Assembly (NCBI GenBank): GCA_026770705.1 | Contig: JANJGN010000021.1 | Span: 89,404,001-89,468,000 of the forward strand | Reading direction: 5' to 3' | Source of the DNA: Isurus oxyrinchus | Lineage: Eukaryota | DNA length: 64,000 bases | Shown here: positions 3,426-58,249 of the stretch, piece after piece | Layout: each line of letters begins with the position of its first letter | Numbering within the stretch: the first letter of the stretch is position 1 | The notes under the pieces: model-generated | What the model was told of the DNA's origin: nothing | Database searches by the model: none | Seen by the model: the letters and a program-made list of their open reading frames with translations, nothing else | Translations under genes and position numbers: made by a program

Positions 3426-3835
3426 TTATGTTTTGCTGTGAATCGATGATTTGGATATAAGAATCATGTGTTAAATTCTCACACTGAAGATTTCTCTAAC
3501 TTTAAGAGCCCTGATTTCTGACTGATGCTATATCTGCGTTTGTGTAACTCTGAGATGTGTTTCCGAATTGGGGTGGGGTATAAACTTAACAGGGGTGTAA
3601 AAAGATCCCAAGTTTCTTCTTCTTGCAATAATCCTGCAGAGGGGGAATATCTGTGGGATCAGGCACACGCTCCCTGCAAAAAGGGACTTTACAAAAGACA
3701 TTGCACCAAGTTATTGGAGAGTATGTTCAGCATCAGTTTAGGAACCACAGCAAAGGAAGGCATGCAGTAAAGCGGCAAGTGCAAACAAACCAGAACTAAA
3801 GACATTCATGGCTTTTCCTTCTGTTTATGTTCCAG

Positions 3836-4162
3836 GTCTGGGACAGGCTGATGGGAATCTGCAGGTGAATGGAATTCTGGGACAGTCAGTTACTTTACCG
3901 GTAAATTTACCATGGACAGACCCTTTGATAATTACCTGGGACTTCAGAAACTTATCCATTCCAAAAAAGATTCAAATATGTACAAAAACTCGAAACAACC
4001 CAGCAGAATGTAACAATGACCTTGGACAGAGGGTCAGGTTAAACCTTACTGACTACAGCCTGGAAATACAGACCCTAATAAAAAGTGACCAAGGTTGGTA
4101 TGAAACTAATGCAAGATCAGGACAGGACGTTCACGAGGAAGTGGTGGAACTGCGAGTTTACG
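3836..4162 (+). CDS. Gene A (CD2/SLAM-family receptor) IgV-like exon
   Basis: tgttccAG acceptor before 3836 and G|GTAATC donor after 4162; 327 nt, phase 1-1. Translates GLGQADGNLQVNGILGQSVTLP...ITWDF...RVRLNLTDYSLEIQTLIKSDQGWYE...VELRVY. Has V-set motifs (G-x-S-V-x-L-P, C-strand W, SL-x-I, D-x-G-x-Y) without the B/F cysteines, as in CD2/SLAM domain 1. Confidence 0.92.
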
Positions 4163-5799
4163 GTAATCTCATTTTAATTAAAGAATGCCTTCTCTGACCT
4201 AACCATCCTTATATGTTTAAAGGTGATTGGAAAGATATTCTTGGACTTGTGCCCAAGTGCCTTGGATCACGTGGATGGAATGAATACTGGAAAATCAGAT
4301 GGGTTGGCATGCATGCCTGCAAAGGAACCTGTGCTGTTTTTAAGTATATGTTAATGTAGGAAAATTAGACTGGTTCCTCTATGCAAGTGACCTCTAACCC
4401 ACCCAGTTTTTTGTTGTGTTTGTGTCAGACCCAGGAGAATATTCCCTGAAATTCTGACTTTTGATGTATATACATAATGCAAGCAGCTGGAATATCATAT
4501 CAAAGCAAATTTTGCCATAAATATCATGGAAGGATGTCATCCTGTTTCATAAATACTTTCTGTGCTTATCAAAGGCAAAAGTAAACCTGAGAGCAGGAAG
4601 ACTTAGACCATCATCCTGCCATCATTCATGCATCAGGAAGGACGAATTTCCTGAAGACATGCTTTATTGTCACAAGTATACCAGGGTTAGACTTCCAACT
4701 GGCCTGATGTCGACTCAATCCCAAATCTTGAGAATGGGCTCATTGGCATAAAAAGGTTCGACACCATGCCATTTACTGTGCGGTGAGGGCATTGGAGCTG
4801 TGCAAGAGCAGAAATATCAGAGCAGTGTCCAGCTGTTCTTCTGAGAACACTGCAGATGGAGATCATATTTTTTAAAAAGGTGCTGCTGTAAATGCTCAAT
4901 TGATCCACATTTCCCAGTTAGGTGCCCACCCACATGAAAGAATATTATACTTTTGCCAAGGCAGGGGTCGAACTAGCATGTTTTCTGCTGACAGAATATC
5001 ATCCAATCAATCTTGCCTCTTTAAAATGTGTCAAAATGGAAGTGAGTGCCTGCTTCTTGCATTGAATTTCAAGTGTTGCAGAACTGGCATGCTCGTTTCC
5101 TCAATCCTACACTTCACATACACAACTTAAGACTTCCTTCTGCCCTTTCGGATGTGCTTTTCAAATGTAATATTTAAAACAACTTCTTAAAAACTATGTG
5201 GCAAAAAGTCCCAAATCATAACAATCCCTCAATAAAATTCACCCTAAAAGGTAGATTCATCTTCAGTTATCTGCTCAAAGGCAGCTCCAACCCACAGTGC
5301 CACAAACCACACAATGGGTAAGGTAGGGACTGAAACCCAAGCTGTTTGGCATCAATCTGATCCACACTGGCCATCCAGCCAACTGAAACAAACAGCCCCC
5401 CGCCCCCCCTAAGGAGCCTGGCTTACATTTTTATATGCATGCTCTAGCCTGGAGCTCTGGATAGTGGTAGTAGAGGTTCCAATTTCTTTCCATCACATGG
5501 GTGACCAGGAATCTCTCCTGGTCTTACAGCTTTCTATTAGCATATGTTCGAAGGATTTACAAGATGATGCTCAACCTTGTCTGGTCACATTATGAACACA
5601 CCTTCCTTGGCCATCAAGCCCTGGGGTTGGACATGAACCCTGGGCTTCTGACTCAGAGGCAGGGCTCTACCACTGTGCCACAAGATCTCCTCATATGTTA
5701 TTTTTTTTAAAAAGAAACTTATCCATTGAGAAGTGGCAGAAAGGACAGGCTAGAAAAGATAAATAACATTAATACCCTGCACCCAGCATCAGAGATATT

Positions 5800-7140: not shown

Positions 7141-7428
7141 AACGTTTATCAAATCCAACAATACAGATAAACAATGTCTCCTCTAATGGGATCTGTAATG
7201 TTAGCATGAGCTGTGTCATGGAAAACAACAGTGATCTGAGCTACACCTGGTGGAGAGGAGCAGAGATGATCACATCTGGTGAGCCACACAGTATGCCCAA
7301 CAATTTGTGGAATCTGGAAGTGTCCTTAAATCTACATGATAACAACACAATTTACAAATGCACAGTGAAAAACCCTATTAGTGAGGAGGCGGAGAGCATT
7401 GATCTCGCAATGGAATGTGACATGGAAG
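7141..7428 (+). CDS. Gene A IgC2 exon
   Basis: ctttaaacAG acceptor and G|GTTTGT donor; 288 nt, phase 1-1. ERLSNPTI...GICNVSMSC...YTWW...YKCTVKNPIS...MEC shows the four-Cys C2 pattern with C-x-x-x-N-P-x-S typical of CD2/SLAM domain 2. Confidence 0.92.
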
Positions 7429-10680: not shown

Positions 10681-10806
10681 GTAACAAGGCACGAAGCAAA
10701 CAACAACTCCACATCGGCCTAATAATTGCTGGGATTACTATATTTATTTTCATCCTGATTAACATATTCTTTGTGTTGAGGAAGAAACATCTCAAGCCCA
10801 ATGAAG
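10681..10806 (+). CDS. Gene A transmembrane exon
   Basis: atcttttcAG acceptor; phase-1 frame GNKARSKQQLH-IGLIIAGITIFIFILINIFFVL-RKKHLKPNE is a hydrophobic helix plus basic stop-transfer. The 3' end is either 10806 (GC donor, phase 1) or 10810 (GT donor, phase 2). Confidence 0.85.
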
Positions 10807-10884
10807 GCAGGTACTCTTGATTGTTCATCTTTTTGTGTCACAGTTTAATTCCAGTGGTTAATAGCTGCTAAGCAGGGCACATAA

Positions 10885-15851: not shown

Positions 15852-15925
15852 CTCCTAACACTGAAAGGACAAGTGAACCAGCACAGTACGCTGTAATCAG
15901 GAAACCGATCTGTGCCAGGGTCCAG
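15852..15925 (+). CDS. Gene A cytoplasmic exon with ITSM-like AQYAVI
   Basis: ttattcaaAG acceptor (phase 1) and CAG|GTTAGT donor (phase 0). Encodes (A)PNTERTSEPAQYAVIRKPICARVQ; its phase matches the terminal exon. Confidence 0.65.
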
Positions 15926-19780: not shown

Positions 19781-19963
19781 TCCCAGGGACATATATACCA
19801 ATTGGATGCAAACAAAAGGCAGCAAAGTCAAGGAGTTCAACTCACCACGATATATGATGAGATAAAATTCAACCCTGATGTGTCGACACCCAAGATGGTG
19901 ATGCAGAAAGGAGAGGAAGAAGTGCCAACGCCTGACTGTTATCTACAGCTACATAAAAGATAA
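19781..19963 (+). CDS. Gene A terminal coding exon with ITSM TIYDEI
   Basis: ttctttcaAG acceptor, phase 0 (alternative in-frame AG 6 nt downstream). Encodes SQGHIYQLDANKRQQSQGVQLTTIYDEIKF...DCYLQLHKR*; T-x-Y-x-x-I is the ITSM of SLAM-family tails. Confidence 0.8.
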   Translation, partial: SQGHIYQLDANKRQQSQGVQLTTIYDEIKFNPDVSTPKMVMQKGEEEVPTPDCYLQLHKR

Positions 19964-26430: not shown

Positions 26431-26605
26431 ACTCCTATAGAAACAGACTCAAACTATGTTTGTAATGTGTATCTCTGTAAATAAAAGCCTATGAGCATGT
26501 AAAGACTAGGCTCCAGATCTATCCTTCATTGCTTGACTCTCTAGAATGTGTAAAGAGTTTGCCATTCTCAATGACTACACATCAGAACAGGCTAAAAAAG
26601 GCATA

Positions 26606-26821
26606 AAAACAAAGAAAACTGCGGATGCTGGAAATCCAAAACAAAAACAGAATTACCTGGAAAAACTCAGCAGGTCTGGCAGCATCGGCGGAGAAGAAAA
26701 GAGTTGACGTTTCGAGTCCTCATGACCCTTCGACAGAACCAAGTTCTCGAAACGTCAACTCTTTTCTTCTCCGCCGATGCTGCCAGACCTGCTGAGTTTT
26801 TCCAGGTAATTCTGTTTTTTT
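26606..26821. mobile_element. Palindromic Penelope pseudo-LTR mini-element
   Basis: Perfect 74-bp inverted repeat (26643-26716 / 26746-26819) of the pseudo-LTR seen at 57840-57940; 13-bp TSD TAAAAAAGGCATA at 26593-26605 and 26822-26834. Confidence 0.88.
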
Positions 26822-27278
26822 TAAAAAAGGCATATACCAATGAGCAGAGTCAATGATTGCTTAATTTCCTTTCTATCCAACCTAAGTCATGAATAATGCT
26901 CAGACAATGGTCAACTCTCAGCCAGACTGGAATAGCACTCAAGCAGACTGAAACAATAGAAGGCATTTCCAAAAATTTACAAGACTGTAATATCACCTTG
27001 GGATGAAACGTACGCACAGAACTTTACTACCACATGTCTGGTAATGCAGGTGCAAAACAGTGACAGTCTAAGGAACAGTGTAATAATCTCTTTATTTCTG
27101 TTGGACTATTGTAAAGAACATATAATTTATTTTCTTGAACTATGACTTTAAAACTACCAGGGCTACAATTAAAAGACATGTTCCCTGGAACAGGATATGG
27201 AATATACAAGTTGCTATTTCCTGGAACAAAGGGTGCCAGGTTGGGCAGCATGGTGTTGGAAAGGGGAACTGCCTAGCA

Positions 27279-27360
27279 TAAGGACTCGAAACGTCAACTC
27301 TTCTCTTCTCCGCCGATGCTGCCAGACCTGCTGAGATTTTCCAGGTAATTGTTTTTGTTT
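27279..27360 (+). mobile_element. Penelope pseudo-LTR fragment
   Basis: ggactcgaaacgtcaactc...ccaggtaatt with 9-bp TSD TGCCTAGCA at 27270 and 27361. Confidence 0.78.
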
Positions 27361-27411
27361 TGCCTAGCAACAATGTTTTAATTGGCTCCTGATCAGGTGA
27401 CTAAGATTTTA

Positions 27412-38795: not shown

Positions 38796-39103
38796 CAGAA
38801 CTACAGTCAATTGTTTTATACTAAATACTTTCTATCCAGTACATTAAATGTGGTTAATTTTTCATTTTTGTTGCCTGATTTCTTCACACCCAGGTGGTTT
38901 ATTGAAATGCGTATTTGTCTTTGTCATTGTTGGCTGTCCCTCGATTCGAGGGTGACATCTACTCAGGGATGAGTTTCTGCCATGGATCTGCCATGGCATC
39001 AACGAACCCTCCAAAATGTGAATTAGGTGTTGGGAGATCTGTGGTTTCTCAATTCCTTCCCCCAGTCTCTTACTGATAAGTTAATATTCTTTTTTCCTAG
39101 AAT

Positions 39104-39182
39104 ATGTTCTCATTTTACTCATATTCCCCTATTGAGCAGTGCATCCCCTGGTAAATATTGGTCCTGTTCATCACTGACCCAG
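39104..39182 (+). pseudogene. Gene B leader exon with in-frame stop
   Basis: ATG at 39104; MFSFYSYSPIEQCIPW*ILVLFITDP then G|GTAAGA phase-1 donor about 200 nt before the V exon. TAA at 39152-39154, where paralog C has TTA. Confidence 0.75.
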
Positions 39183-39379
39183 GTAAGAAAATGTCTGCTT
39201 AAAATTGAGAGTAACTGGAACAATACATTTAAAGTGTGAATGTTGCATTCTGTAATGAAACGTCAGTGTGCAAGAAGCCTCAGGCAGATTGGATGTTGAT
39301 TGCAACGCACAAGCAGAAATACGGACTGTAATTGTACTCCCGCAGAACCATTCCAACAGTATGATGTTTTGTGTTCCAG

Positions 39380-39706
39380 GTCTGAGACAGGCTGATGGGA
39401 ACCTGCAGGTGAATGGAATTCTGGGACAGTCAGTTACTTTACCGGTAAATTTACCATGGACAGACCCTTTGATAATTACCTGGGACTTCAGAAACTCATT
39501 CACTGCAAAAAAGATTCTTGTAGGTACAAAACCTCGAAACAAGCCAGCAGAATGTAACAATGACCTTTGGCAGAGGGTCAGGTTAAACCTCAGTGACCAC
39601 AGCCTGGAAATATAGACCCTAATAAAAAGTGACCAAGGTCAGTATGAAACTAATGCAAGATCAGAACAGGACGTTCACAAAGAAGTGGTGGAACTGCAAG
39701 TTGATG
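39380..39706 (+). pseudogene. Gene B IgV exon with nonsense codon
   Basis: 327 nt with the same splice sites as the gene A V exon and ~92% nt identity; CAG>TAG at 39613-39615. Confidence 0.9.
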
Positions 39707-40338
39707 GTAATCACCTTTCCTTGTGTCAGATCACTGCCCTGATCCATCAAATCAAGCAGGGTAAAAGTTACAGAAAATAGGAATGTCTGTCTGGAAGTTC
39801 TGGGAATGAAATTAAAGTAAATCTGCGCTTATTTAAGATATCCATTATTAATTACTTTGGGATTAACATTTGGAATTTAAAATCTCCGATGATGAAACTC
39901 AGTTTGCTTATGGGATATTCACAGGAAGGAACATTGACAGGATCACTGAGACTACATATACAATAGTTTGACAGACTGTCAGATTAGTTAATTGGTGTGG
40001 TTTTTTTGCTTTCTTAATAGTGAGACTAGAGAGTGATTCTAAGTCCCTGTATATTATACTGAATCCCCTACCCCACCCACCCACCCACCCACAGAATATG
40101 AATGTTCAGTCAGGACAGATGGGGACCATGATTATGACTTGCAGCTCTATTGCCTAATTAGATTCAGAAGTGTGCTCTGCTTGTCTGGTCTGTTATGTGA
40201 CGAAAAGCCAAGAACTCTGGCAATATCCAGGCCAATATTCCTCCTTAAACCAACATTATCAAAATCATATTAACTTGTCATTTGTCTCATTCGTCAGCTC
40301 CTATGATACCCAGATTAGCTACAGAGTGGCTCCATTTT

Positions 40339-41592
40339 AGGGCAATTTCTCCCTCACTTACCTTGAGAGGCATCCTGCTGCTGTGTTCAAGTTGGAGGCA
40401 TCTTATTGACCCTCCTACTTCCAAAGACTGCCCACATTCTTAATGGCCCGTTGGCAGCAGATGTGCTTGGCAGCGTGAGCAGACAATACAGCGAGAAGGC
40501 AAAAAGTCGGTTTTATGTGAAATCAGGTCGCAACCGTCTGCTCCGCCCGTCAATGGCAGGCCATATTTCCCGTTGCCACATCGGGAACCTAATTTCAATA
40601 CTTTAGCATCTCATTATAAGTTCTGCTCGCTGAATCATCCCCCCGCATGTTAGATCATCCGAGCATGTGGACATGTTCCACAACTGTACATAAGCGATGT
40701 GCACCTGGCGAGCTGCTCTTCACTTGGGACTTTGAGGTTTGCCTCTACCTTGCTTCAGTCAGCACTTGTGGTCATCAGCGCGAACTTCACAGGCAGCACC
40801 ACATCATTTTTAGGGATGGGGCTCATGGGCAGGTCTGTATGTACCAGGCCAGCCATGAGGTGAGGGTGGCATTTCAATAGCTGCAGGACTAGGGCTTACT
40901 TGGGGAAAGGGGTGAAGTGGCCTCAGGCAAGAGAAGAATCTGCAGGGCGAAGACTGTACTGGGGAAGGAGGGGATCTCCGGGTGTGTGTAGGGCACATGT
41001 TCATCTGTGCAAGTGGCCTCAAGATGATGAGGGCTGAGGAGGCAGTCTTTAGAGGAGATGAGGCCAAATGGAGATGTGAGGGTGTGTGTGAGACAGTGAG
41101 TGGCGACGTCCCTTGAGCTGGGAGTGAGTGAGATGTCAGTGAATGTGTGATGGCTTTGTGAGTATGTGAATTTAGACTGATGAGATGGTTACCTTACCCT
41201 GGCAGCAAGGATGAGATCACTCATCCTCTTTCTGCACTACATGCCAGTCTCTTCTGCGCAGCATTGGCACTGACCACCACTGTCACCTCCTCCCAAGCCA
41301 GCATGGTGAGATTGATGGACCTCCTATGGTCAGAATGGGGGTGGAAGACATCATGATGCCCTTCCAAAAGGCATTCCAGTGACAGGACACTGAACTTTTG
41401 GCATTCAGGGCCATGTCTTTACAGGAGCAGTCCTAAAGCTGCAAGCATTGAGAACTGTGTGCACCCAGTGTGAGGAAGCAGTGAGGTAACAATTCAGAGG
41501 ACGCCAGCCAGTGAGACAGTGTGTTTCCTGTGGCTGCCTAATTTTTCACACCCACTACCACACTTAGTGCAATTCTGGACAATTCCACCCAG
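40339..41592 (-). mobile_element. Harbinger-derived element with Myb/SANT-like ORF remnant
   Basis: Minus strand 41300-41210 reads AWEEVTVVVSANAAQKR/(frameshift)*CRKRMSDLI; GGG...CCC ends. Confidence 0.6.
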
Positions 41593-42187
41593 TGAGCTCA
41601 CCCTTTGGTCACTGATTGGCCAAATTGGGGAAAAATCACAGATGAGTGACTGTTTCCCATACAGTGCCAGCTTATGACCCTCATTTGAGGCCAATGGCTG
41701 GTTGATGATGCCTGCAGAGAAAATCCTGACACTTGCATCACATCATTGCTTTTCTCCTTGAAATTGAGGGAGAGTAGAAGTTACAGAGAGTGGGAATCTC
41801 AGTGAGGAAACACTGGGAATGAAAGTCAAGTTGATTTGCAATTATTTAAGTTAAGCATTCTTAATTTAGTAAAACTAAAGGATGGCTCCAATGACTCCAA
41901 GTTCCTCTGCATGACACAGAAACCCTGCCCACCCACATGACATGAATCTGCAGTCAAAACAGATGGAGACCAATGATTATTACTTTGCAGCTCTATTGCC
42001 TAATTAGATTTAATCCAGGGCTCTGACTGCCAGGTCTGGTATTCAGGCAGATGTTGAAGATCACACTGAATTATCTGAAGAAAAGCAACAAGCTCCTGTG
42101 ATATTCTAGCCAATATTATTCCTTAATCCAGCATCATCAAAGTTAAATTAACTCGTCATTTATTCTCATTTGTGGGTTCCTGATGCG

Positions 42188-42410
42188 TGCAGATTAGCTG
42201 CAGTATTCGCCTGCATAACAACAGTGACTGGGCTTCAGAGATATCTTTGGGAGTCAGAGAGAAATTTACAACATTTTTTTACCCAAATGGGCCATGGTTT
42301 TTAAACTGTTTTTCACCTCTGTGAAGCAATCACGTGGCTTTGGGTGGAGTAGAGGGTGTATATATTGGGATGCATACAGTATAATAATTATACAGGATGC
42401 GCTGGATTGA
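42188..42410 (+). repeat. ~220-bp direct repeat, copy 1
   Basis: Matches 43661-43882 (gcataacaacagtgactgggcttcagagatatctttggg exact). Confidence 0.88.
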
Positions 42411-42588
42411 TCAGAAGGCTTTTTCCTGTCCAGCATTACTAGTATCTTTGTAAGTGTTTTCAACATTTCTGAGGAAAGTAACAAGATGCTGGATATGTAC
42501 AAATGATATTTTAAATAGCATTTTAAAAATCTGCTCATCCCACATGTGCACCACTCCACCCTGCTAACAAGATTTTATTCACTTTCAG

Positions 42589-42870
42589 AACGTGTATCAA
42601 ATCCGAGAATACAACTGATCAGCAGCGTCTTCTCTGATGGAATCTGTAATGTTACCCTGAGCTGTTCAGTGGAAAGTGGCAGTGACCTGATGTACAGCTG
42701 GTGGACAGGAGGAGAGTTGGTCACACCTGGTGGGCCATACATTGTGACCGACAGTGGGAGGAAACTCAGCATGTCCATAAATCTACACAAAACCAGCACA
42801 GTTTACAAGTGCATGGTGAGAAACCCTGTTAGTGAGAAGACTGAAAGCGTGGTCCTCACAGGGCCCTACT
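42589..42870 (+). CDS. Gene B IgC2 exon (frame intact)
   Basis: actttcAG acceptor and T|GTAAGC donor; 282 nt, phase 1-1. ERVSNPRIQ...GICNVTLSC...YSWW...YKCMVRNPVS; the fourth Cys codon is split T|GC with the next exon. Confidence 0.85.
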
Positions 42871-43499: not shown

Positions 43500-43639
43500 G
43501 CAGAGGAAAAGAGAAGGCAGATGGCACTCTGCACTCAGTTCAGATCCTGGGAATACGAGCTGTGATATTCACAATCGCTCTCATCATCACAAACACTGAG
43601 GTCTGTGTCTGGGAGCAAAGAACAGTTGAAGGAAACTAA
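43500..43639 (+). CDS. Gene B terminal TM exon with intramembrane Arg and short tail
   Basis: tctttctAG acceptor; the phase-1 join gives CRGKEKADGTLHSVQILGIRAVIFTIALIITNTEVCVWEQRTVEGN*; Arg codon at 43556-43558; no Tyr in the tail. Confidence 0.72.
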
Positions 43640-43660: not shown

Positions 43661-43882
43661 TGCAGATTAACTGCAGTGTTCACCTGCATAACAACAGTGA
43701 CTGGGCTTCAGAGATATCTTTGGGGGTTAGAGAGAAATTTGCAAGAGTTTTTACCCAAAGTGGCCAGGGTTTCTAAACTGTTTTTTGCCTCTGTGAAGTA
43801 GTAACATGGCTTTGGATAGAGTTGAAGATGTATATATTGTGATACATAAGGGATAATAATCATTTAGGATGGGTTGGATGGA
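43661..43882 (+). repeat. ~220-bp direct repeat, copy 2
   Basis: Matches 42188-42410; starts 22 nt after the gene B stop. Confidence 0.88.
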
Positions 43883-44514
43883 TTGTTCGGAAACAATCTA
43901 GTTTGTCAGAGGAATCTCTACACATTGGAAATTTACAGGAAAAATGCAGTAACCTTTGATGGTTAATATTCAAAGATACTGACAATAGGATGAATACAGC
44001 CACAAGCCCAAGTTTATTCTTTATGCTTCAGCTGATCATGACCCTTGAACCTGGAGATCACTTCAACATCATTCCCGTGTGTCGTATGCAGGAGGCACAT
44101 TAGAAAATGGAGAATATAAAAAAATCATGAAAGAAGGATAAAATGTTTAGCTCTTCACAAACCTGGTACAAGATGCCCTCTGATGCTCTCCACCCAATCA
44201 TGCTAATTCCTGTATGGAGGTCCTGCAGACTATCCCCATTCCCTCAACAGACCCTCTAAAATATGCCTGCTCAGAGTCTCTACCTAAACAAATGCAATTT
44301 TTTTTGGGAAGGTTCCATAGGTGAGCCCAGCATAACCATCAAAATTTCATACTTTTTTTCATGGTCATAATACCATCTGTCAGAATCCATGGTGAGATTC
44401 ACCGTTTGTATATAATGGTAATCTGCTGTTATAATTCTACAGGTAGTGAGATATGTTTTACAAATGCATGTAACCTTGGACTGTGCAGAGACAAATGAGT
44501 TTGCTTTCCTTGAA

Positions 44515-50132: not shown

Positions 50133-50233
50133 AGTTCTGTTGAAGGGTCATGAGGACTCGAAACGTCAACTCTTTTCTTCTCCACCGATGCTGCCAGATC
50201 TGCTGAGTTTTTCCAGGTAATTCTGTTTTTGTT
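50133..50233 (+). mobile_element. Penelope pseudo-LTR fragment with hammerhead motif
   Basis: agttCTGTTGAagggtcatgaggactcGAAAcgtcaact, near-identical to 57838-57940; absent from the paralogous segment near 36.9 kb. Confidence 0.8.
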
Positions 50234-50384
50234 ATGTAAAAGCACAACCAGCTCACTGACCATTTCAGGGAATGGATAAGGTTTAGTCTGTAATATTCTA
50301 CAGTATCTGATATTCTATTCTGAAATTCTCATTACAGAAGGACTAAAAATAAGGCTACTGTGTTCCACTGTGAGTCAAACCCGT

Positions 50385-50665: not shown

Positions 50666-51945
50666 TGTTGGGTACTGTTTGATTGTGACAATTACCAATA
50701 GCTTACCCGTGGCTTATCGTTTCTTACTTGCACAAGTTGCAGGAAATCGTTATCTTCAACCCAAAGATCTGCTGCTGGTTAGTGGAGTATATAATTACCA
50801 ACTGCTCAAAGATAAAAACGATCCAGATGGGCTGCGATGACATTGCAGTTAAACCAGAACAACACTCAATCAATGGGGTATTGGAGCTGATTGGGAACAT
50901 AACGTGAAGGCTTCTGTTCAGTATGAGTTCAGGTCTCATCCTGTTAATAAGACAGAATAATCCCTCTGTAGCTGCTGTGTATTGAGGTGTCTGATCGTCT
51001 TCCATTTGATCAAGTTTCTCTGTCATTGATAAAAAGAGGGCTTTGGGGTGATAGTAACCTAACTCACTGGGCAGGGAACCCCAAGTGATCGTGTAGCATG
51101 CTGGTTTCGTACCCTAATCAATTTACTCCCATTGACTTCAATGGACAGTACAATCAGGTGAATGTAACAATTTTGCATCCACTGTCCCCCTCCACTGACC
51201 CTCAATTTCCCAACACGCAGGTTAATTCATCAATGCTTGGTCTTCTCAAGAACATTGGTTCAGTGACCATGAAATATTGCCTCATCCAATCTTCAAGTTA
51301 ATGCACCAGTTGCCAGAACAGATCAGGCAATAACACATGCATCAATCCACCATACTGACTGGCCTTTTTCTCAAAGAAGGCGACAAAAATCTCCCTGCTG
51401 AGGAACTAGGGATGATTGCAATGATTGGGTGCTCCCGGGAAGGATGGGTAACACATCCCATAATATTATGAGAATTGGTATTGGATAGAAAATCCCAAAT
51501 AACTGACCCATGAGTTTCTGATCACAGTTCGTAAACATCACCATCCCTGGCCAAGACTAAGCAGAATTAGCCACAGTTCAAATGCCAGTTAAACAGCAAA
51601 TTGCCAGAAATACTCAAAACAGACTCCACCACCATAACCTGTAATAATGAACAAATTGTTTTATACTAAATCCTTTCTATGCAATATATTAAAGGTGGTT
51701 AATTTTTCATGTTTGTTGTCTGATTTCTTCACACCAAGATGGATTATTACAATGTGCATTTGTCATCATCATTGGCGGCCATCCCTCAATTTGAGGATGA
51801 CATCTACTCAGGGTCATGAATTTCTGCAATGGTTCTGCCATGGCATCAGCAATGCCTCCAAAATGTCTATTGAAGGACAGGAGATCTGTGGTTTCTCAAT
51901 TCCCTCCCAAGTTATTGATGTGTTAATGTTCTTCCCTCCTAGAAT

Positions 51946-52023
51946 ATGTTCTTTTTTATTCACATTCCCTCACTGAGCAGTGCACTTCCTAGTTAATATT
52001 GTTCCTGTTCACCACTGACCCAG
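51946..52023 (+). pseudogene. Gene C leader exon (frameshift and stop)
   Basis: Homologous to 39104-39182 but 1 nt shorter, with TGG>TAG at 51990-51992; CAG|GTACGA donor. Confidence 0.72.
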
Positions 52024-52225: not shown

Positions 52226-52527
52226 GTCTGGAAAAGGCTGATGGGAATCCCGTCTCTTTGCACCTGGTGAATGGCACTCTGGGAGAGTCAGTAATGTTAC
52301 CAGCGAATTTTCCATGGGCAGCACTCCAGACACTCATCCACTGGGAGAATGATTCCAGTGTTTATGAAAACCAAAATGACCCACCAGACTGCCACAATGA
52401 GCTTCGAGAGAGGGTCAGGTTAAAACCCACTGACTATAGTCTGGAAATACAGACCGTAAAAGTATCCAAGGTTAATGCAGGTCAAGACAGACCATTTGCA
52501 AAGAAGTGACAGAATTGTAAGTTTACG
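52226..52527 (+). pseudogene. Gene C IgV exon, degraded
   Basis: tgttccAG acceptor and TAC G|GTAATC donor; GLEKADGN...VNGTLGESVMLP...RVRLKPTDYSLEIQT. 302 nt (frameshifted, with internal deletions) and TAA at 52518-52520. No downstream C2 exon found in the window. Confidence 0.85.
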
Positions 52528-53174: not shown

Positions 53175-53544
53175 ATTGATTCCTTAAGTCATGGCCCTGC
53201 TCCATGAATTCAGGGAGAGTAAAAGTTACTGAAAATGGGAATGTCATTGAGGAAACACTGGGAATGAAAGTAAAGTCAATTATTTAAGTTAACCATTAGT
53301 TTTAGGTTTAACATTTGCAATTAAAAGTTACTAATGATGAAACTTACAGGTTGATAATGTAACATTCACAGGAGGAAACATTGACAGGATCATTACGTCT
53401 ACATGTATTGGAGTTTGATCGACTATCAAAATATTCTATCCCTGTGTTTCTTTGCTTTCTTTACCATAAGACTAGAGCATGATTCTAAGTTCCCGTGTAT
53501 TATTTTCACGTTTAGAATACCATCTGACTCAACTCAATTCATAA

Positions 53545-54605: not shown

Positions 54606-56822
54606 AATTAGGAGGCATGTAACGAGGGTGATACAGTAACCACAGCCTTTAGTCTTCATATAGACCAAATTGGTAACATTATAAACCTTTTCCTTGAGAC
54701 TATCTTTAATTTCTCCATTAGCTACAGTTGGACCTCTTTTCCCATGGGTGTTTTATTCTTCAATAGTGTGGAAGACAAGCTCATGCAATATATACAGATA
54801 GTTTTCTAAATCAATATGTTGAGAACCAACAAGGGTAAAGACTATTTTAGATTATGTTAAATAGTATTGTGCAATGACAAGGTTAATAAATAACCATGTA
54901 GTGAAGCAGTCTCTGGAGAACAGTGATTCTAATATTATAGAATTTAATATTGAGTCTGAATGTGATTTAGTTAAGCTTAAAATTAGGCTTTAAATCTGAA
55001 TGAAGTAAATTACAAAGGCATGACGGGTGAGCTGGCCGAGATACTCGGGCAGTAAAAAAAATGACGACACATTAGAACAATGGGAACATCTTTATTTTCC
55101 AAGCTAAGGTTCTTTCTCCCTGCCATCTTTTACTACTAGGTCTACCCTCCCCCTGTACTTTATTGGCTGCGAAGTACTTGGGACACTTGGTGCATATGAA
55201 AGGAGCAAGTCTTTCCTTTTTGTTAAGTATCAGTTTTCCTCATACACTTAAACTATCAATATCTTCGTAATTTTATGCTCCCTTCTATGCTATTTATTAA
55301 ATCACTACCTTTGTGTCATTGGCAAACCTGGATATCTGACTCTACATTAACAAATATAGTTCAGACTCCAAAATAGATCCTTGTGGAGCATCATGAGATA
55401 GTTCCTTTCCATTCGAGTACATACTCATTATCTGTCCTCTCTAGCTTCTACCACCAAACAAATTTCCTAAGCAGATCAATAATTTGCTTTCAATTCCATG
55501 AGCTTTAATGTCAGCTAATAGTCTCTAATGTACGCCTTCAGTCTCCATTGAGTGTCCAGGAGAGCAAAATGAATTATCCGAGGTCAGGTTAAACTTTATC
55601 TCAAAGCACTGGAAAGGAACTTGTAAAGGGAATGGGAAGTACCAGCGTCTTGATCCTGGTTGGAAATAACAATGAGGAGGTTATGCTAAGGAAGCACAGG
55701 GAGCAAAGTATATTAAAAAGTAGGACACGGACTGGGAATCGCCAAATGGCTACCCAAGCTATAAGCCCATTGGAATCAAGCTGATCAGATTAGAGAAGTC
55801 ATTGCATGGCTAAACAAGTGATATGAAAGAAGTCTTGGCACCTTCTATAGTTTGCTATAGCTGGATACCTAATAGTGTCTCTGACCCTTACTGCAGGTGT
55901 TACAGACTTAAATTTTCTTCCCTATTGCATCATGTATAAATTCCTAGCCTTCTAGAGGCTCACATCTAGCTCCATATAGCTGTTATGCCTGCTTTATGTA
56001 GTCATAGTCATAGAAATCTACTAGTCACACCCCGAAAAGTGATGTCTGGATACAAGAAGGCATAGACATAAGACCAGTGCTCCTCTCTGTTGAAATTTTC
56101 TGCAGGGCAAAAATCAACTTCTGCCGCACAACTCCAGGCTCCTTCCCCCCCCCAGTTAGGAACTAACCACCCACCCCAACACCACTGTATCATTCTCACC
56201 ATCCAGCCTCACTTAGCAAATGGACATTAAACCAAAGAGTCGCTCTCCCCTTCCATTTTGAGTTTCACACCCCTCATAGCCCCATCTCACCTCTGATATT
56301 CGTACCAGTCAATGCTCCATATGGACTTCCATTCTGTATAAGCCTTATTTCATTTTCCACTTATTTCTGTGCCACCCTTCTCTCCTGTTTATAGTTCCAT
56401 CTGACCTCTATTTCTGATCTCTTAAAACCTGGAACATTAACATATCTGTCCAAAGCTGTACGCTGAAGCCCCTAACCAATGTGCCTGAGGAGTCTTACTT
56501 TGCCTGAGCAACAGTGATTTGCTGCAATCTTGGTGGGTAAGATAACAGTAAAAACAGTATAAACTGGAATTTCCAATATTAATTATACATACGGTAAAGG
56601 GTATTGTCCTTGTTCCTAATATTATCTATAAGGGATCCTAAAATACAGCTACCATACAATGAATATGCACTGAGAGGTGTCAATTTTCAAATGAGACTTG
56701 CCACGTCAATCCTCTCGGATGGATGGGATGAATCCCATGATAATATTTTGAAGAAGAGTAGGAGAGCTCCCCCTAGTGTCCTCACTAATATTTCTCTTTC
56801 ATCCAACATAACTAAAAATAAA

Positions 56823-57940
56823 AACATGATAAGGTCCCCCTTGTCCTCACTTATCACCCCACCAGCCTCCGCATTCAAAGGATCATCCTCCGCCATTTCC
56901 GCCAACTCCAGCATGATGCCACCACCAAACACATCTTCCCTTCACCCCCCTTATCGGCATTCCGTAGGGATCGCTCCCGCCGGGACACCCTGGTCCACTC
57001 CTCCAAGACCCCCTACTCCTCAACCCCCTCCTATGGCACCACCCCATGCCCACGCAAAAGATGTAACACCTGCCCCTTCACTTCCTCTGTCCTCACCGTC
57101 CAAGGGCCCAAACACTCCTTTCAAGTGAAGCAGCATTTCACTTGCATTTCCCCCAACTTAGTCTACTGCATTCGTTGCTCCCAATGGGGTCTCCTCTACA
57201 TTGGAGAGACCAAACGTAAACTGGGCGACCGCTTTGCAGAACACCTGCGGTCTGTCCGCAAGAATGACCCAAACCTCCCTGTCGCTTGCCATTTTAACAC
57301 TCCACCCTGCTCTCTTGCCCACATGTCTGTCCTTGGCTTACTGCATTGTTCCAGTGAAGCCCAACGCAAACTGGAGGAACAACACCTCATCTTCCGACTA
57401 GGCACCTTACAGCCTTCCGGTCTGAATATTGAATTCAACAACTTTAGGTCGTGAGCTCCCTCCCCCATCCCCACCCCCTTTCTGTTTCCCCCTTTTTCCC
57501 TTTTTTTTCCCTACAAATTTTATAGATTTTTCTTTTCCCACCTATTTCCTTTATTTTTAAATATTTTAAAATCTTTGATGCTCCCCCCACCCCCACTAGA
57601 GCTGTACCTTGAGTGCCCTACCATCCATTCTTAATTAGCACATTCGTTTAGATAATATCACCAACTTTAACTTTAACACCTATGTGTTCTTTTGTACCAT
57701 TGTCGCTGACATCTTTTGATGATCTGCTTCTATCTGCTTGTTTGTCTACACAAGCACCTCTCTCTCTATCTCTCCGCCCCCCCACACACACACCTTAAAC
57801 CAGCTTATATTTCAACTCTTTCTTGGACTCGAAATCAAGTTCTGTCGAAGGGTCATGAGGACTCGAAACGTCAACTCTTTTCTTCTCCGCCGATGCTGCC
57901 AGACCTGCTGAGTTTTTCCAGGTAATTCTGTTTTTGTTTT
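56823..57940 (+). mobile_element. 5'-truncated Penelope-like retroelement (GIY-YIG endonuclease, 3' pseudo-LTR)
   Basis: Open frame 56825-57454: VPLVLTYHP...CPRKRCNTC...NLVYCIRC...LYIGETKRKLGDRFAEH...VACHF...LEEQHLIFRLGTLQPSGLN. Exact 15-bp TSD ATAACTAAAAATAAA at 56808-56822 and 57941-57955. Confidence 0.92.
57838..57876 (+). ncRNA. Minimal type I hammerhead ribozyme motif in Penelope pseudo-LTR
   Basis: AGUU-CUGUCGA-A-GGGUC(AUGAG)GACUC-GAAA-CGUC^AACU: stem I AGUU/AACU, stem II GGGUC/GACUC, palindromic ACGU stem III. The core has U at the usual A6 position. Confidence 0.65.
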
Positions 57941-58249
57941 ATAACTAAAAATAAATTACCTACCACATTTCCTACAACAGTGACTCTACTTCAAGCTACT
58001 TCATTGGCTGTAAAGCGATTTGGAATGTCCCGAAAGGTGTTACATAAATGCAAGTCTTTCTTCTCTTTTAAGGCAAACTGATTTACATGGAACATTCAGA
58101 GTAATTTAATAGTTGGCTCCAATGTAATCATAATTAACACATCATTTCTATACAACCTAAATGGAATGAGTTAACCTCTTCTCACTAGCACCAAAGACAA
58201 AGTCAAACACAGATGCATGAACTAGTATTATGAGTATTACTACTGGGGG

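Follow-up and report, generated by a model that had tools for sequence, protein, structure and literature searches.

Evidence for recurrent V-exon conversion between two SLAM-like genes of sharks and for their likely function as paired receptors

Two SLAM-like receptor genes of the shark Isurus oxyrinchus, here called A and B, have nearly identical Ig V exons set between introns that can no longer be aligned, and it is very probable that the V exon was converted between them. Comparisons with predicted proteins of other sharks suggest that this has happened repeatedly, and we hold the whole statement, that recurrent V-exon conversion goes with a likely paired-receptor function, to be rather probable. 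The DNA analyzed, hereafter the window, was a stretch of 64,000 nt (GCA_026770705.1, JANJGN010000021.1:89,404,001-89,468,000, forward strand). Conversion was assessed by site patterns, by a permutation test on identical runs, by dS, and by approximately unbiased (AU) tests on trees.

Genes A, B, and C in the window

Gene A is intact, with a leader, a V exon, a C2 exon, an uncharged TM, and two cytoplasmic exons, the last of which ends in an ITSM. Its leader exon was located by tblastn on neighboring stretches, about 19.8 kb upstream of the window start; its other exons are all on the + strand of the window. The V exon (3836..4162), the converted partner of B's, gave a Pfam V-set match above the cut-off, and among solved structures its sequence is closest to SLAMF6 and CD84. 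The C2 exon (7141..7428) has not been homogenized with that of B and is 98% identical to the A protein of Carcharodon; the A V domain is 96% identical to the Carcharodon protein and 91% identical to the Cetorhinus protein. The TM exon (10681..10806) is followed by a first cytoplasmic exon with the tyrosine motif AQYAVI (15852..15925) and by a last exon with the ITSM TIYDEI (19781..19963), which fits the consensus TxYxxV/I (PMC5112662). The TIYDEI motif is conserved in shark and skate orthologs, and T-x-Y-D-E-I is kept in full-length shark A proteins. By its frame with the next exon, the A TM exon likely uses a GC donor, apparent at 10807-10808 and in agreement with the Carcharodon model; a GT donor 4 nt further on would give a stop in the next exon.

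Gene B, also on the + strand, is a pseudogene in this genome. The coding part of its leader (39104..39182) has an in-frame stop at 39152, and its V exon (39380..39706), which is 92% identical to that of A and the probable recipient of conversion, has one at 39613. The leader is of the B type found in Scyliorhinus, Hemiscyllium, and Heterodontus and is unlike A leaders. A B-type C2 exon (42589..42870) is followed by a TM and last coding exon (43500..43639) with an arginine near the TM start and a tail of about 8 residues that has no tyrosine motif; B has no ITSM, as in SLAMF8/9. The TM of this copy has gained polar residues. Among the sequencing runs listed for this stretch none is of RNA, which says nothing either way about expression. 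The B locus is also present in contigs of a close relative, which differ from it at 18 of 1,102 positions. Because the site of the V-exon stop is absent among the 9 differences listed, out of the relative's 10, this stop is probably shared with the relative.

The intron between the V and C2 exons of B contains an old internal duplication (39720-40324 versus 41732-42203, 68 to 73% identity), and within it 41743-41859 matches the downstream flank of C (53189-53297) at 81%. This duplication may be what is left of a further V-exon unit, now lost; a tblastn search of it for V remnants gave none. A direct duplication of 224 nt (84% identity; 42188-42411 versus 43661-43883), with a repeat-like start, flanks the C2 and TM exons of B.

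Fragment C, the third member on the + strand, consists of a B-type leader (51944..52023) with a stop at 51990 and a decayed V exon (52226..52527) whose 5′ form is 12 nt longer. It lies about 13 kb from B, and its V exon is 76 to 79% identical to those of A and B. No C2 or TM exon for C was found in 264 kb (the window plus 100 kb on each side). The C V exon is a relic of the B V exon that predates the latest conversions, and its longer 5′ form is the older one.

Elsewhere the window has young short repeats, 91 to 100% identical and in both orientations (26603-26822, 27277-27362, 50133-50239, and 57838-57944, with an inverted pair at 26637-26822), and a 210-codon open frame (56822-57451), which resembles the C-terminal endonuclease part of a Penelope-type retroelement.

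Extent, template, and direction of the conversion

The first-pass annotation of this DNA had proposed that the V exon was copied between nonsister paralogs 35.5 kb apart, and its main observations were reproduced. A gapless alignment at an offset of 35,544 gave the colinear V exons with the 26 differences in 327 positions and the 94-nt identical run that it had reported. Self-BLAST of the window returned this likeness (3824-4174 versus 39368-39718, 91.7%, gapless) as the only high-identity match outside repeats. The longest identical run (39403-39496), which covers strands A′, B, and C, is longer than expected among 26 scattered differences (P = 0.003 with 100,000 permutations). It may be a second tract, later and possibly shorter; constraint on the back strands of A could also add to it.

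That the likeness stops just past the splice sites was likewise seen: beside the exon 11 of 12 and 10 of 12 positions match, and beyond them only 5 of 30 and 7 of 30, so that some 12 nt past either splice site identity is no higher than chance. The flanks of A (590 to 600 nt) score 25 to 28 against those of B and C, and shuffled sequences average 25 to 26. In contrast, the flanks of B and C score 670 upstream and 310 downstream against each other; the upstream region, the leader, and the first and downstream introns are 78 to 84% identical, which bears out the earlier alignment of B with C. The C2 exons of A and B, said before to be about 48% identical in amino acids, were found to be identical at 50% of 90 aligned residues and at 76% of nucleotides.

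Within the V exon the relationship is reversed. Informative sites group A with B 58 times, B with C 9 times, and A with C 15 times (2 show other patterns), confirming that the B V exon is nearer to that of A than to that of C. The A-like informative sites span positions 7 to 318 of the 327 in the exon, and A and B have in common a 12-nt deletion that is absent in C and in the aligned sharks outside the lamniforms. The topology is thus (A,B),C for the V exon and (B,C) for the leader and introns. As the annotation had expected of a conversion, dS between A and B is far lower in the V exon (0.079; 95% confidence interval [CI], 0.02 to 0.15) than in the C2 exon (0.345; CI, 0.19 to 0.59; Fisher P = 0.0045). 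Topology and dS together support the proposed copying, and neither observation that would have told against it, A-B identity through the introns or equal dS in the two exons, was made. The A-B dN/dS ratio is about 1 in both exons.

Collapse of the two loci during assembly was considered and is ruled out by contigs that join the B exon to B introns. One contig from a sequencing run of the same species spans the B V exon and downstream intron (39467-40605) with 1 difference, and a second from the same-species run reaches from the B leader to the exon start (38939-39432) with 0 differences; the relative's B locus agrees. When the 5-Gb assembly was searched for alternative V-exon donors, all three candidates were A, B, and C themselves. 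The genome search for C2 paralogs (23 matches among 116 candidates) gave only A and B above 40%. Many small scaffolds carry expanded, near-identical SLAM-like C2 exons that are 33 to 39% identical to the B C2 exon; by their sequences, these appear to be a second, far larger SLAM/CD2-like expansion elsewhere in the genome.

For the limits of the tract the annotation had offered two causes, nonhomology of the introns or a cDNA template, and only the first holds up well. Because the introns of A and B have no homology, pairing is confined to the exon and its splice-site margins. A retrotranscribed A mRNA would also give exon limits, and the A-like sites do span nearly the whole exon and halt at its ends, yet a cDNA carries no intron bases, and A and B share 17 of 20 nonconsensus intron bases within 12 nt of the V exon, versus 4 of 20 beside the C2 exon (P = 9e-5). 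Moreover, neither intron of B has been lost, no leader or C2 junction sequence of A type is seen in this gene, and intron nonhomology suffices to explain the limits. Fragment C also has the shared flank bases; they may therefore date from older tracts, which leaves slight room for a cDNA in the latest one. Overall, we regard a cDNA template as very improbable.

Under conversion between DNA copies, the direction was perhaps mostly from A to B. This is weakly favored by the divergence of B from C, which amounts to 75/290 in the V exon against a lower 165/870 in the flanks (P = 0.015), the outcome to be expected with B as recipient; the comparison is confounded by fast evolution of the V exon and by the decay of C. 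Assuming a single rate, the V exons of A and B diverged about 5 times as long ago as this species and the relative did, and the B/C duplication is about another 2.6 times older than that A-B divergence. At all three of the listed exon sites where the relative differs from the window B, the relative has the base of A. At residues 39, 42, and 47, B has the Cetorhinus-like state, and the window A and Carcharodon A share a different residue, so conversion has apparently ceased in this lineage. The last exon-wide conversion here is old, and B died afterwards.

Recurrence among sharks

Protein searches found both gene types in Mustelus asterias, Scyliorhinus canicula, S. torazame, Hemiscyllium ocellatum, and Heterodontus francisci. 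These comparisons rest on predicted proteins rather than on genomic DNA of those species. The same searches gave no B-type protein for Cetorhinus, Carcharodon, Chiloscyllium, Stegostoma, Rhincodon, Pristiophorus, or Heptranchias, which is not proof of absence.

In a tree of V domains (19 rows, built without the two partial B domains of Mustelus and S. torazame and without one skate paralog), each of the four complete B domains groups with the A domains of its own lineage (support, 94/96, 100/97, 90/96, and 97/99), and a clade of B domains is rejected (p-AU, 9.7e-71). The TM and C2+TM trees (20 rows; the same skate paralog and Heterodontus B left out) instead unite five B genes with support of 100/100 and 100/99, and they reject placing the window B with lamniform A (p-AU, 6e-11 for TM and 2e-5 for C2+TM). 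The tree of C2 alone, made without one skate paralog, did not resolve a B clade and did not reject the window B with lamniform A (p-AU, 0.072; a further p-AU was 0.12). Since the V domain groups by lineage and the TM and C2+TM regions group by gene, V-exon conversion has recurred in four shark orders. On these trees, the A/B duplication is older than the four galeomorph orders, and the V exon was homogenized independently at least four times, or five if the short Mustelus piece described below is counted. One consequence is that V-domain trees misassign orthology in this shark family, for which leader and TM exons are preferable.

Pairwise identities agree with the trees. By identity, the best A match of six B V domains is in the same species for four, a tie between the window A and Cetorhinus A for one, and in a congener for one. 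A and B V domains are 79 to 85% identical in the four complete pairs and 56 to 69% identical between orders; over 28 residues, the partial B V domain of Mustelus matches Mustelus A at 96% identity. In Heterodontus the C2 domain of B has its nearest match in A of the same species (72%), and conversion may therefore have extended into C2 in this shark.

V domains can be constrained by ligand binding, and purifying selection, convergence, or assembly collapse might in principle make V exons alike with no transfer at all. However, synonymous sites and the 12-nt deletion are shared by A and B, orthologous A V domains of different orders are just 63 to 69% identical (less than A and B within a species), and the same-species and relative's contigs show the B exon joined to B introns. 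The contigs, the V tree, dS, and the TM and C2+TM trees together refute this explanation, and we give it almost no credence.

In all five B genes whose TM can be read in frame, this segment has the arginine and the tail is short; the four A TMs scanned alongside are uncharged. Of the five other B records, four show apparent defects: that of S. canicula bears the label LOW QUALITY PROTEIN, that of Mustelus begins inside the V domain, that of S. torazame lacks the middle of the V domain, and the tail of Heterodontus B is read in another frame, in which its unusual sequence matches the B TM exon. Hemiscyllium B alone appears whole, as a model. Annotation error may account for part of these defects.

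Among batoids, most skate and ray paralogs stand outside our trees. In skates, several SLAM paralogs are very similar in their V and C2 domains and differ in their tails; one of these paralogs has an arginine just before the TM. A Mobula model carries two V domains in tandem. These features suggest a separate expansion and homogenization of SLAM paralogs in batoids.

Family identity, paired-receptor function, and known systems

By exon structure and Pfam, the ectodomain has one V and one C2 domain with a single TM, as in the SLAM/CD2 family; the C2 matches to Pfam fell mostly under the cut-offs. Only two solved structures matched the V domain by sequence at E ≤ 0.1, SLAMF6 (7e-7) and CD84 (0.003), and profile matches outside sharks were mostly to SLAMF7/2B4-like or unnamed Ig proteins. 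A fold search ranked CAR first and NTB-A second, which reflects the generic IgV fold and cannot separate SLAM from CAR, JAML, or nectin. Database names of the orthologs vary (SLAMF9-like, Ly-9-like, and SLAM-like).

Several properties of A and B are those of paired receptors, and such a function is suggested by sequence comparison. The binding domains are nearly identical within a lineage; the other parts are older and gene specific, as shown by the TM and C2+TM trees (C2 alone did not resolve this); and one partner, A, has a tail with tyrosine motifs while B combines a charged residue in the TM with a short tail. In such a pair both partners should also be intact and expressed, from which the window B, with its two stops, departs. 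Three matches above the cut-off were found in the genome to TM exons of the zeta/FcR-gamma family, one of which resembles CD3-zeta and another FcR-gamma.

On a predicted structure of the V domain (mean pLDDT, 88), 13 of the 19 A-B differences lie on the CC′C″FG face (P = 0.044). A similar excess was found in S. canicula (12/17) and Heterodontus (16/23; P values for the three pairs, 0.044, 0.039, and 0.018) and was not found in the Hemiscyllium pair (6/18; P = 0.95). The three other pairs, when pooled, gave P = 0.07.

A and B are ancient SLAM-like paralogs in which the V exon follows the lineage and the tails follow the gene. We propose that ectopic conversion at the DNA level between the tandem copies has most likely carried the V exon across repeatedly, its tracts presumably ending at the splice sites because the introns are no longer homologous. 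A would signal through its ITSM, and B, by prediction, would activate by way of an adaptor, perhaps of the FcR-gamma type, that its TM arginine binds. Selection might then keep the binding faces of A and B alike, a pathogen that attaches to A being one conceivable cause. The opposite signaling of A and B and the pathogen ligand are suppositions from sequence, and because ITSM receptors may activate or inhibit (PMC6963180), A would not simply be a brake.

Conversion could also sustain itself neutrally, with the V exon alone still alike enough to pair, no selection for matched binding, and B often decaying. This account fits the death of B here, the apparent defects in four of the five other B models, the coincidence of tract limits with homology limits, and the dN/dS ratios of about 1. 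It fits less well with the B-type leader, the C2 domain, and the TM arginine, which have stayed recognizable over four orders and so would have needed long purifying selection on B. Nor does it explain why C, which is as close to B and as similar in its V exon as given above, was not homogenized, or why the C2 exons at 76% identity were not. We therefore judge neutral conversion to be unlikely, with perhaps the best claim among the alternatives.

Another possibility is that conversion was selected for self-recognition rather than for decoying a pathogen, with B a ligand or coreceptor of A in the manner of the tailless SLAMF8/9 or of CD48. Most mammalian SLAM receptors are self-ligands, SLAMF2, -8, and -9 have no ITSM (PMC6963180), and the tail of B has no tyrosine. 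But the conserved TM arginine would be left unexplained, and the A-B differences gather on the presumed binding face in three of the four pairs. This explanation is improbable in our view; if true, it would leave the conversion part of our proposal standing.

Returning to paired receptors, a bolder and more tentative version, which we would not bet on at even terms, is that galeomorph sharks had a dedicated activating decoy for an ITSM-bearing SLAM receptor, a single ortholog kept across four orders, rematched to its partner by independent same-strand V-exon conversions, and repeatedly lost. If so, there would have been a long-running pathogen (or ligand) using shark SLAM, and the sharks would have a paired-receptor solution that the mammalian SLAM family does not have. 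In mammals, SLAMF1 serves as the morbillivirus receptor (PMC6963180). The A/B pair provides a concrete case in which the use of an activating SLAM decoy by sharks can be examined, and Hemiscyllium, where the B model appears whole, is the best place to do so.

The closest relatives in structure are mammalian SLAMF1 to -9, which have the V+C2 ectodomain and ITSM tail of A; no pairing of a TM-arginine member with one that has an ITSM is described in the available text of PMC6963180. An NxxR motif at the start of the TM recruits FcR-gamma in LILRA, PIR-A, NKp46, and Xenopus XFL (PMC2413239). The B TM reads L-G/V-I-R, with the arginine and without the asparagine, so that B may work like these receptors and is not one of them. 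Literature searches, which mostly did not extend to subscription journals, found nothing on conversion in SLAM genes or on the A/B pair. Xenopus CD2/SLAM-like genes reportedly include forms with an NxxR TM that couple to FcR-gamma, so activating SLAM-like forms are probably already known in frogs.

Exon-restricted conversion between paired receptors is itself already established for CEACAM and Siglec genes. The primate SIGLEC5/SIGLEC14 and SIGLEC11/16 pairs resemble A and B: an inhibitory gene lies beside an activating one that couples to an adaptor, ongoing conversion homogenizes the ligand-binding part, and the activating gene is often lost (the SIGLEC14 null allele), like the dead B (PMC4042635). 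They differ in that their tracts cover the first two domains, whereas that of A and B covers one exon, and in that the DAP12 adaptor and a pathogen ligand were demonstrated experimentally for the Siglecs and are only supposed for A and B (PMC4042635). Loss of an activating partner is also described for gibbon CEACAM3 (PMC11646289). The defective B records would fit such frequent loss; they would equally fit neutral conversion into a decaying gene.

For the CEACAM pairs the likeness is in the conversion and the difference is in the arrangement. In Xenopus ceacam pairs such as ceacam301/303, the same exon boundary of conversion is described, and differences are likewise reported on the CC′C″FG face (PMC5112662). 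These genes are of another family, and their activating partner has its own ITAM-like motif; their conversion events are recent, whereas the last broad event here is old and B is dead (PMC5112662). Above all, they lie in opposite orientation, which their authors deem necessary, whereas A and B are a same-strand tandem (PMC5112662). Mammalian CEACAM1/CEACAM3 and relatives are again of another family, with a model that favors inverted orientation (PMC2832619, PMC7042247, and PMC11646289). The palindrome-loop model of CEACAM conversion calls for opposite orientation, and A and B are both on the + strand; the pair is thus a same-strand counterexample to the claim that conversion requires inverted genes. 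What sets this pair apart is the SLAM-like family, the depth of the recurrence, and the same-strand tandem arrangement, which extend exon-restricted concerted evolution of paired immune receptors from the CEACAM and Siglec genes to a SLAM-like family and to sharks.
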